Source: Parcubacteria group bacterium Gr01-1014_31
GTDB lineage: Bacteria; Patescibacteriota; Patescibacteriia; Buchananbacterales; GWA2-38-13
DNA: 64,000 bases
Assembly: GCA_007376135.1 (NCBI GenBank)
Contig: VMFR01000001.1
Location: forward strand, 142,554 to 206,553
Direction of reading: 5' to 3'
Positions 31,821 through 62,067 of the stretch are shown here, in pieces (position 1 is the stretch's first letter; every line of letters begins with the position of its first letter). Under the pieces are notes generated by a model that had not been told where the DNA came from, ran no database searches, and saw nothing but the letters and a program-made list of their open reading frames with translations. The position numbers were made by a program, and so were the translations under genes.

Positions 31821-32019
31821 AGTATTCTGTATTAACTATCCCCAAGCCATACACCGTTTCACCCTTGACGGGCCTCACCCTGCCCATCTCGCGTTTTTGA
31901 ACAGTGCAATATTGGGGATAAAGTAATAAACTGCCTTTTCTGACCGTCGATGCACGCGCTTTGTCCCGCTCCATCCTGGGGGGAAATCGAACCTTCATAC
32001 TGGGCTCTCCCACACATTG

Positions 32020-32090
32020 CTGGGGGGGAAGGAATCGAACCTTCATTCGCAGCTCCAAAGGCTGCTGTCCTGCCATTAGACGACCCCCCA
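32020..32090 (-). tRNA. tRNA-Gln(TTG), intact, no encoded CCA
   Basis: TGGGGGG TC GTCT AATGGC AGGAC A GCAGC CTTTGGA GCTGC GAAT GAAGG TTCGATT CCTTC CCCCCCA G. Confidence 0.95.
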
Positions 32091-32199
32091 GCAATGTGTG
32101 GGACCTTGCCCGACTCCGCGCCTGCCCCGTCGTATGACGGGGCCCTGTTTTACCCCACACCTTTCGACCTTAAATAGCAGAGCTACTTTGCTTGCCTAC

Positions 32200-32270
32200 C
32201 CGCGGGAGCAGAACTCGAATCTGGATTCACGGCTCCAAAGGCTGCTGTCCTGCCCTTAGACGATCCCGTA
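32200..32270 (-). pseudogene. Degenerate tRNA-Gln(TTG)
   Basis: Same D and anticodon loop pattern as the intact copy, but mismatches in the acceptor (A-C), anticodon (A-C) and T stems (C-C), and A53 in place of G53. Confidence 0.75.
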
Positions 32271-32359
32271 GTTATGGAAGCGATAGTACTAAAGGTCAAA
32301 AGGTGTGGAGCGAGGACGACCCCCCCCAGGACGGGACGCAACGTCCACCGGTACCGGCA

Positions 32360-33557: not shown

Positions 33558-34244
33558 TCAACTCAACCGATAGCGCCCAACCGCCTCATCGGAGGTCAGT
33601 GTGCCCTGATCAAGTACCAGCACACGGCGCCGGATCTGATTAACCCTCCCCTCGTCATGGCTGACAAACAGCACGGTCGTACCGATCTGGTTGATCTTCA
33701 GCAATAACTCGATGATCTCTTGCGAGGTGGCCGTATCCAGGTTGCCGGTCGGCTCATCCGCCACCAGGATCTTGGGACCGTGGGCGAGCGCCCGTGCGAT
33801 CGCGACGCGCTGCTGCTCGCCGCCGGAAAGGTGGCGCGGGAAACGGTCGTGCTTATCGGCCAACCCGACGATCTTGAGCACCTCGGGGACGATCTTGCGG
33901 ATACGCGAGGGGCGCGCTCCGATCACCTGCATCGCGAATGCGACATTCTCAAAAACGGTCTTCTTTTGCAATAATTTGTAATCCTGGAAAACGACACCGA
34001 TCTGCCGCCGAAGGTAAGGCACTTCACGAGACCGGATGTGCGTAATGTCCCAACCGCCGACGACCACCTGCCCTTCGCTCGCCCGCTCTTCGGCGGTCAG
34101 GATCTTGACCAGCGTGGTTTTTCCGGTGCCGCTCTTGCCAACGATCGAGATGAATTCACCCGCCAAAACCTCGAAAGAAACGTTGGCCAAAGCGACCGTG
34201 CGCTCAGGGAAATAGATTTTGGATACGTTGCGGAAGATGATCAT
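33558..34244 (-). CDS. ftsE: Cell division ATP-binding protein FtsE
   Basis: [38 protein letters not shown]. Confidence 0.93.
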
Positions 34245-34267
34245 GGGTTTTGAGGAACGCGCACGGC

Positions 34268-34305
34268 TTGAAATTTCTACCCCAGCGTGCGTATACTGGT
34301 ATACT
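34268..34305 (+). promoter_or_regulatory. Probable promoter(s) of the Gly/Thr tRNA cluster
   Basis: TTGAAA-N18-TATACT and a second TGgTATACT extended -10. Confidence 0.55.
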
Positions 34306-34357
34306 GCTGTCCCAACGGCATCGGGTCAAGGGATAAGTCTATTCCCGGCCGCCACGC

Positions 34358-34548
34358 GCGGGATTAGTACCATGGTAGTACGTCGGCTTCCCTCGCCCCT
34401 CACCTTTACGATTGGCTCTCTGCGGGTGTAGTACAGTGGTAGTATGCTAGCTTCCCAAGCTAGAGATGGGAGTTCGATTCTCCTCACCCGCTCCAGGTAA
34501 AGGTGTGGGGGCAAGCAAAAGACGCGAGTTCGATTCTCGTATCCCGCT
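34358..34548 (+). pseudogene. Outer interrupted tRNA-Gly(CCC) shell (exons 34358-34392 and 34513-34548)
   Basis: GCGGGAT TA GTAC CATGGTA GTAC G TCGGC TT CCC | 120-nt insert | AA GCAAA AGAC GCGAG TTCGATT CTCGT ATCCCGC T; intact acceptor, D and T arms, mismatched anticodon stem. Confidence 0.85.
34422..34495 (+). tRNA. tRNA-Gly(CCC), intact with CCA, nested in the outer Gly shell
   Basis: GCGGGTG TA GTAC AGTGGTA GTAT G CTAGC TTCCCAA GCTAG AGAT GGGAG TTCGATT CTCCT CACCCGC T CCA. Confidence 0.95.
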
Positions 34549-34589: not shown

Positions 34590-34808
34590 GCCGAAGTACT
34601 TTCACATCTTGCCTTGCCGGAGTAGCTCAGCCGGTAGAGCAGTGCTTTCGTAAAGCAAAGGTCGAGGGTTCGAGTCCCTCCTCCGGCTTGGCAAGATGTG
34701 AAAGATGCCGATCATTGTGGGTTTCCCGCCGTTCTCCTCTTTCGGTTATTGAAATATAGGGAGGAGGGACCCCGCCGACGGCGGTGGCGACTCCCACCTT
34801 CGGCTCCA
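34590..34808 (+). pseudogene. Outer decayed tRNA-Thr-like shell
   Basis: 5' GCCGAAG-TA (34590-34598) pairs perfectly with 3' CTTCGGC followed by T-CCA (34798-34808); eroded T arm GTGG-CGACT-CCCAC. Confidence 0.7.
34616..34688 (+). tRNA. tRNA-Thr(CGT), intact, no encoded CCA, nested in the outer shell
   Basis: GCCGGAG TA GCTC AGCCGGTA GAGC A GTGCT TTCGTAA AGCAA AGGTC GAGGG TTCGAGT CCCTC CTCCGGC T. Confidence 0.95.
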
Positions 34809-61590: not shown

Positions 61591-62032
61591 GCTGTGGATA
61601 GCCAGGCGGTCGCTCCGATACACAATCGGAGAGGAAAGTCCGAACACCCTGGTTGTCAATTGACAATCTGTCGCGGTAGTGGGTAACGCCCACCCGGGCC
61701 GCAGCAATGCGGCTTGAGGACCAGTTCCACAGAGACCATACTAACCCCGAAGGGGTTATCCCGAGCGACGCCCGCAAGGGCGGAGTCGAGGGATCTCCCA
61801 TTCAGGGCAAAACGTGAAAAGTGTGGCGAGGTCATTGGCTACAAGTGGGAATTCCCGGTAGCTGACGGCTACGCTACTCCGCGCCCAGCGATGGGACGCG
61901 CGTGGTAAACTCTACCTGGTGCAATGCCAAGTTTGGTCGGCAGCATGAGGCCGCCAGCAATGACGGTCCCAGAGAGATGATCGCCACCCGCCTTCGGCGG
62001 GGACAGAATTCGGCTTACCGGCTATCTGCAGC
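61591..62032 (+). ncRNA. rnpB: RNase P RNA
   Basis: GAGGAAAGTCC, CACAGA, GGTAAAC and ACAGAA-TTCGGCTTA conserved regions; P1 GCTGTGGATAGCC/GGCTATCTGCAGC. Confidence 0.93.
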
Positions 62033-62067
62033 AATAAAAAACCCCGCCTCAGCGGGATTTTTTATTG
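62032..62067. terminator. Bidirectional terminator after rnpB
   Basis: CAATAAAAAA-CCCCGC-ctca-GCGGGA-TTTTTTATTG. Confidence 0.8.

Follow-up and report, generated by a model that had tools for sequence, protein, structure and literature searches.

Bacterial MITEs and REP doublets are short, non-coding, dispersed sequences with inverted ends, and they share these ends with a longer unit that carries a single gene. Group I introns at position 35/36 of tRNA genes have reportedly been found in Patescibacteria. In the Ssn system, as described by Chenal et al. (2025, PMC11893778), a small gene for a single-domain GIY-YIG protein is flanked by hairpin repeats (NTS/SRM), which are also found scattered at places where the gene is lacking. 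The Ssn nucleases are reported to bind the hairpin repeat and to cut single-stranded DNA a few bases away. The authors compared the NTS-ssnA-NTS arrangement to an insertion sequence and also drew a comparison with REP sequences and IS200-IS605; the main text of that paper contains no mention of tRNA. A GIY-YIG nuclease is associated with tRNA genes in phage T4, where SegB, a free-standing homing endonuclease, recognises the tRNA T stem-loop and spreads with neighbouring tRNA genes (PMC2330249). [quoted passage not shown] As presented there, the process involves a whole prophage, a tyrosine integrase and a core of ~10 bp.

Here we describe a complete tRNA-Gly(CCC) gene contained in a 120-bp insert within another, broken tRNA-Gly(CCC), referred to below as the shell. 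The window (the whole stretch of DNA that was analysed) is 64,000 nucleotides long and belongs to G000, a genome of 1.34 Mb in 8 contigs that is 99.7% complete and in which bacterial genes and RNase P RNA were detected; the genomes of its relatives up to phylum level measure about 0.4-2.1 Mb, on which grounds it probably belongs to the Patescibacteria (CPR). We put the probability at roughly 0.8 that the insert is a protein-less, hairpin-ended mobile element which broke the resident tRNA-Gly(CCC) and carries a replacement allele; a GIY-YIG protein acting in trans is its likely mover. The element is lysogeny-like in its logic and MITE-like in its build, and its partner resembles Ssn and SegB; for lysogeny, MITEs and introns alike, a defining feature was looked for and not found. 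As in tRNA-dependent lysogeny, a tRNA gene is broken and not rebuilt and an isotype-matched tRNA is supplied, but here this is done by 120 bp without a protein or a duplicated core, with inverted arms and at many isotypes per genome. Terminal inverted repeats, dispersed copies and both empty and filled sites were found, as would be expected of MITEs, whereas in 13 of 20 cases target bases have been lost and not duplicated, the one kind of gene seen between the arms is GIY-YIG where a MITE would be expected to share its ends with a DDE or Y1 transposase gene, and what is carried is an essential gene by which the target would be rescued. The likeness to Ssn lies in the small single-domain GIY-YIG gene between hairpin repeats, as seen in arm-bounded units of relatives. 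It ends with the repeat sequence itself, with long inverted arms in place of short separate hairpins, with tRNA loops as targets and tRNA as cargo, and with the position of the proteins that have Gly-insert arms outside the clade with SRM-like flanks (in a tree without SsnA itself). SegB likewise links a GIY-YIG nuclease to tRNA-gene sequence, but it cuts double-stranded DNA and homes between phages, it is not known to have hairpin ends, nested tRNA or non-autonomous derivatives, and the proteins considered here have only 80-100 residues. An interrupted anticodon loop whose flanks rejoin on paper recalls tRNA introns of the bacterial self-splicing and the archaeal endonuclease type (PMC4390854), from which this insert differs in having no ribozyme core, in occurring as a family in both orientations and in its decaying flanks. 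No description of nested tRNA genes or of such an element was found in the literature searched, which comprised titles and abstract openings and covered few subscription journals.

The nest is flanked by a divergent ftsE-like gene and tRNA-Thr(CGU) and lies downstream of a promoter-like site (2 such sites in the region against 0.3 in shuffles). The features of the region, in window coordinates, are:

34268..34297, + strand: putative sigma-70-like promoter candidate upstream of the tRNA-Gly/tRNA-Thr region, 10/12 consensus matches
34358..34392, + strand: shell 5' half, the broken resident tRNA-Gly(CCC), ending at C35 or C36 and carrying A14C
34392..34409, + strand: insert left end, tag CTCG plus arm CCCCTCACCTTTAC, of an arm family with 8 paired elements in G000
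34410..34421, + strand: linker 5' of the inner tRNA, common to G002 and, in part, G003
34422..34495, + strand: inner tRNA-Gly(CCC), complete with CCA encoded, found by ARAGORN and Rfam, 0/74 differences from G002
34497..34515, + strand: insert right end, arm GTAAAGGTGTGGGGG plus tag CAAG, the tag overlapping shell positions 36-39
34513..34548, + strand: shell 3' half, with two anticodon-stem changes relative to the intact allele and without encoded CCA
34590..34808, + strand: second, adjoining nest around tRNA-Thr(CGT), whose remains match the intact G001 tRNA-Thr allele
34590-34598, + strand: 5' stub of the older tRNA-Thr(CGT) allele in that nest
34599-34613 and 34690-34704, + strand: 15-bp arms of that nest, enclosing an intact tRNA-Thr at 34616-34688
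34715-34723 and 34788-34808, + strand: 3' remains in that nest, with the T loop split by a further hairpin
32153..32310, - strand: element of the Gly-insert arm family with a degenerate tRNA-Gln copy, upstream of tRNA-Gln(UUG) at 32019-32090

The inner gene scores 69.9 bits in Rfam and is the sole tRNA-Gly(CCC) called in G000. When the shell halves are joined, ARAGORN with relaxed thresholds finds a tRNA-Gly(CCC) cloverleaf whose anticodon stem contains two mismatches; the intron mode of the program did not call the shell. The predicted fold of the entire 191 nt beats those of 200/200 shuffles (z -3.3). A Logan contig from run X1, possibly the source sample, spans 33900-34548 with 0 differences, and the left and right junctions are found separately, with strain differences, on contigs from three further studies (X2-X4). 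In G002, an independent genome of the same genus, the left junction is the same, the inner gene is identical and the linker region shows 1 difference in 29 bases; the right side is longer and different. The nest is confirmed as real, and the contigs together with the G002 junction uphold the view of the preliminary description that it is not an assembly echo. A metagenome contig search with the linker and the start of the inner gene gave 0 matches, a second metagenome scan with shell half and arm gave 0/120 loci with tRNA context, and a phylum-wide pattern of Gly loop plus arm was seen in 7/401 genomes, not above the reversed control.

The preliminary description had placed the insertion exactly at position 36/37. 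The insertion stands but the exactness does not, because 34392 and 34512 are both C and the boundary slides by one base: a joint at 34391/34512 has one base common to both sides, and 35/36 fits as well as 36/37. The two insert ends share at most one base, in agreement with the reported lack of a target duplication. The tags at the ends of family members, CTCG (34392-34395) and CAAG (34512-34515), extend into what had been taken for loop bases, which suggests that part of the rebuilt anticodon loop may come from the ends of the element. Removal of 34393-34512 does rebuild a cloverleaf at the relaxed thresholds given above, but the perfect loop may be supplied in part by the element, and with A14C in the shell its L-shape elements are not all intact.

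An intact counterpart of the shell is present in G001. Its tRNA-Gly(CCC) differs from the shell at 3/71 positions, namely A14, which is C in the shell, and two anticodon-stem bases, with a single different base in the 5' half. A14C removes the U8-A14 contact. All three changes break structure, and the view that the shell no longer decodes is upheld. The G002 shell keeps the three and has two other changes, and the shells of G000 and G002 differ at 5/71 positions. Between the inner gene and the shell there are 15 differences, and a search of 401 genomes found the inner allele type as an ordinary gene in 6, which belong to other families. The compensated pairs that distinguish inner from outer copy arise because these are two ordinary tRNA-Gly(CCC) alleles, and the nest is not a recent tandem duplication, as had been argued. 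The shell is the resident tRNA-Gly(CCC) allele of the genus after breakage.

Comparison with orthologous loci, as the preliminary description had proposed, was carried out: the resident allele is intact in G001 and the left junction is common to G002. At the orthologous locus of G001 the resident allele is nested in itself, with the break in the T arm. G003 shows the reverse nesting, with a resident-type allele inside a broken copy of the G000 inner allele and a similar linker. In G004 and G165 the anticodon-loop site that is broken in G000 also contains a nest, whose arms are unrelated; in the latter, which belongs to another family, the same two allele types are nested at the same position beside ftsE. 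In a pattern test of fetched loci both shell halves were found at 6/31 distinct Gly(CCC) calls, which is not a rate as the loci had been picked by similarity. These comparisons point to the Gly(CCC) locus as an insertion hotspot. In G005 (L257, contig C45) a run of N lies exactly between the tRNA-Gly(CCC) halves of the orthologous locus, suggesting that such nests may often fall into assembly gaps. A change of A14 to C recurs in the Gly shells of G000, G001 and G003 (L260, L259 and window 34371), and the working copies keep A14; shared descent and selection to silence shells are possible alternative explanations.

The arms of the insert define a family that is concentrated at tRNA genes. A 12-mer from the arm, with at most 1 mismatch, has 20 matches in G000, 18 of them within 300 bp of a tRNA call; such surroundings make up 2.3% of the genome. 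Paired elements number 8 in G000, all at tRNA genes, and the regions fetched from G001, G002 and G019 add another 13. The cargo of these 21 elements from four genomes, several of which are orthologous and hence not independent, is a tRNA in 15, a GIY-YIG ORF in 2 and neither in 4. The elements are 41-296 bp in size, break the D, anticodon and T loops of tRNA genes and may point either way with respect to the strand of the tRNA (tags CTTG..TGAA or TTCA..CAAG). In 13/20 rows 2-5 target bases have been lost from a same-isotype tRNA gene, 2/20 (the Gly(CCC) nest included) show a 1-base overlap and 5/20 show only weak matches to other isotypes, the script used being one that detects duplications of up to 2 bases only. 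The Gly(CCC) nest combines end tags of mixed type with its overlap in place of a loss, and a related GIY-YIG unit (L237) has a short repeat at both ends. The two orientations and the lost target bases argue for a DNA-level process and against splicing. When the arms were shuffled, the predicted pairing of the inner acceptor stem fell from 0.96 to a mean of 0.50 (40 shuffles). Across the class a 13-mer of the arm was found in 63/401 genomes against about 24 for a reversed control counted by eye, a modest signal; 9 of 30 class-wide loci had a tRNA within 500 bp and 0/30 had a GIY-YIG ORF nearby. A 16-base arm motif was set aside: in genome contigs it gave 119 stretches, and nearly all of the 80 listed were from unrelated taxa, consistent with chance. 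The tRNA-Gln(UUG) gene at 32019-32090 (- strand) has a short stalk of its own, and the arm-family element upstream of it is common to G002.

Candidates for the enzyme come from the small GIY-YIG genes, of which G000 has five, in addition to one long UvrC-sized gene. Four of the five adjoin tRNA genes, those at tRNA-Tyr and tRNA-Ile(UAU) lying behind 5' tRNA remains. None of the five has the very arms of the Gly-insert family. In G002 a 303-bp arm-GIY-YIG-arm unit with the tags and arms of the family sits in the D loop of a broken tRNA-Val, its ORF having one internal stop, and intact GIY-YIG ORFs with related arms are found in G001 (L254), G015, G017 and G019. The arm-enclosed gene in these relatives is single and about 290-300 bp long, encoding proteins of 80-100 residues. 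Terminal inverted repeats scoring at least 14 flank 9/29 of the GIY-YIG ORFs of the order, against 0/400 control pairs, and for 9/29 a tRNA is no more than 400 bp away. A tree of 36 proteins, built without SsnA and with flank labels assigned by our own motif patterns, places the arm-bounded and most tRNA-linked proteins in a group (98/94) apart from that with SRM-like flanks (99/96), and five ORFs with the Gly-insert arm type fall in one part of the tree. One of the G000 proteins matches the UPF0213 structure 1ywl, and for one there is just a sub-threshold match in NCBIfam. The fifth small gene of G000 (C8:17074-17277) lies within its own inverted repeat away from tRNA genes, and a similar repeat forms a hairpin insert in tRNA-Pro(GGG) remains on C3. 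The GIY-YIG unit at G000:C7:38231-38604 lies directly behind tRNA-Ser(GCU), and after it 15 bases of the tRNA 3' end are repeated.

From these associations we infer that a GIY-YIG nuclease is likely to move the elements. The same insertion could have taken place at the DNA level through another mover, such as a tyrosine recombinase, an HUH transposase or template-switching repair, with the GIY-YIG gene as mere cargo. Two tyrosine recombinases are encoded in G000, GIY-YIG ORFs are present in just 2 of the 21 listed elements, and many stalks are unique to one site and resemble one flank copied from the other, all of which would suit such a mover. The terminal repeats and tRNA proximity of the order's GIY-YIG ORFs and the common place in the tree of those with the Gly-insert arm type speak against it, as does a Pfam search in which no Y1 transposase was found in this 99.7% complete genome, and we regard another mover as unlikely, if worth keeping in mind. 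The insert is real, arose at the DNA level and probably compensates for its own damage; if the nuclease step holds, it possibly belongs to a new class. That wider proposal, to which we give slightly less than an even chance, is that of a class of mini mobile elements moved by a GIY-YIG nuclease of 80-100 residues and not by a transposase; derivatives of theirs that encode no protein would bring along entire tRNA genes and repeatedly replace essential tRNA alleles, so that about half of the tRNA set would have been turned over and two tRNA-Gly(CCC) alleles would displace each other in cycles.

The Gly(CCC) nest is one of many in this genome. Fragments of their own sequence were found within 300 bp of 21/47 G000 tRNA genes, on both sides in 10, compared with 18/2038 and 1/2038 for control pairs of other isotypes; the 47 calls are those with a canonical T loop (3/50 were dropped), and the test misses diverged shells such as that of the adjoining tRNA-Thr nest. 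Flanking inverted repeats scoring at least 11 accompany 19/47 tRNA genes against 20/400 control pairs. Between G000 and G002, the tRNA-Glu(CUC) that is intact in G002 exists with the same sequence as a shell in G000, a left arm and 5' stub accompany tRNA-Lys(UUU) in G002 only, and the GIY-YIG unit behind tRNA-Ser(GCU) is present in G000 and absent from G002. The Asn, Leu(CAG), Val and Ser(UGA) loci carry different inserts or alleles in the two genomes. Retro-copying of mature tRNA was considered as a source of the nested genes: CCA is encoded in just 4/25 of these (a list chosen by eye, in which the Gly(CCC) inner gene is one with CCA) against 12/22 of the others, and its rarity argues against copying from mature tRNA. 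At tRNA-Ile(UAU) (G000:C5:8900-9500) broken copies, at least 4 hairpin types, a GIY-YIG gene and an intact tRNA in a 12-bp stalk are found together. About 80 bases, including hairpin inserts, are shared upstream of tRNA-Arg(UCU) and tRNA-Arg(CCG) (G000:C6:73864 and C4:32871).

The fate of the shells was followed by comparing G000 with G002. In 16 shared nests the inner tRNAs show 6/1149 differences (0.5%), whereas the shell fragments show 45/516 (8.7%), a rate about 17 times faster. Other nest DNA has 237/2637 differences and the flanks of 12 plain tRNA genes have 183/1770; the nests were selected by eye, and for the flanks just those bases that could be aligned are counted. By these measures the shells diverge like flanking DNA. 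Four-fold sites, with 609/1488 differences (41%), lie far above the 9-10% of tRNA-flanking DNA; the low flank divergence may have any of three causes, namely the restriction of the count to alignable bases, a general intergenic constraint or a recent transfer of the tRNA regions.

These figures bear on the suggestion that the shell persists because its tRNA-like RNA has a function, for instance as a processing guide, a decoy for an anticodon nuclease or integrase, or a regulator. In the predicted fold its acceptor, D and T stems remain paired, and its 5/71 differences to G002 are few when set against the 41% at four-fold sites. The shell fragments, however, diverge no slower than flanks, the changes are non-compensatory and include A14C, many other shells have been cut up by additional hairpin families in the D and T loops, and others are partly deleted. 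A functional shell is thus very unlikely, and the idea that its L-shape is kept under selection is not supported. The shell is decaying, and the nest appears to be neither an intron nor a preserved working structure.

Also very unlikely is derivation of the insert from a shrunken prophage or island of the tRNA-dependent-lysogeny type that broke the tRNA and brought a complementing copy. The logic of breakage and same-isotype replacement is the same (PMC10865867), and the inner allele type, being an ordinary gene in other families, would fit such an origin. A duplicated core of ~10 bp is lacking, however, no integrase or phage gene is contained in the insert, and the same arms are found at many isotypes, in three loops, in both orientations and in elements of 41-296 bp. 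That the insert is a tRNA-containing intron, which on splicing would give two tRNA-Gly molecules, can hardly be credited in spite of its place in the anticodon loop and of the G002 shell, which would rejoin with an intact anticodon stem, and the G165 shell, which likewise keeps its stem: RtcB (PF01139) and splicing endonuclease (PF01974) were not found in G000 in searches with positive controls, Rfam gave no group I/II match (gathering or E<=10), the insert has just 46 non-tRNA bases, family members delete target bases and are found in both orientations, the shells decay, predicted folds pair the arms and, as judged by eye, have a one-sided bulge but no bulge-helix-bulge, and where X3 and X4 show the joined form, this comes from metagenome DNA and most likely represents ordinary tRNA genes of other organisms, so that the splicing envisaged in the preliminary description is not upheld.

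For a hairpin-ended mobile element with a GIY-YIG protein in trans, the following course may be proposed. The protein would nick the loop of a tRNA gene or the hairpin of the element, probably in single-stranded DNA as with the Ssn nucleases, and host repair or recombination would then fix the insert with the loss of a few target bases. In needed genes, only inserts that bring, or later gain, a tRNA of matching isotype would persist, a step suggested by survival and by the match between cargo and target isotype. The same-isotype tRNA may have arrived between the arms in a second step after an empty hairpin had landed. The cargo can be a near copy of the target, as in G001, or another allele, as in G000 and G165. 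In the present case the insert would be tolerated on account of the complete tRNA-Gly(CCC), a different allele, that it brings; as G000 has no other tRNA-Gly(CCC) call, we infer that the inner gene complements the broken one. In the RNA the arms are predicted to pair into a stalk, which would help the inner tRNA to fold, and RNase P and other host nucleases would release this tRNA; RNase P RNA and RNase III are present in G000. Dead shells would collect more hairpins, and inner genes would be broken and replaced in turn, giving nests several layers deep. The decay of shells, the further inserts and the inner genes turned shells are all seen as a pattern in the genomes compared.

If this is correct, essential tRNA genes of small-genome bacteria would be repeatedly swapped by tiny selfish inserts and would not be stable vertical markers. 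One nuclease family would join the few enzymes known to mobilise DNA, a role would be found for the small GIY-YIG genes that are numerous and unexplained in such genomes, and a very small loop-targeting nuclease would become available for study. The genus is a good test set because autonomous-looking, tRNA-carrying and filler units as well as empty sites are present in four close genomes. Caution is also warranted in annotation, as tRNA genes called 'split' or 'intron-containing' in such genomes can be dead shells.

Two further observations were made in G000. The RNase P RNA (window 61594-62033) has 440 bases compared with a 367-position model and contains extra GC-rich hairpins; a comparison of this extra length with the GIY-YIG flanks gave no significant match. 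On C3 (L398:1702-2995) a 325-residue reverse transcriptase is encoded beside a small helix-turn-helix-like neighbour in a patch that appears low in GC.
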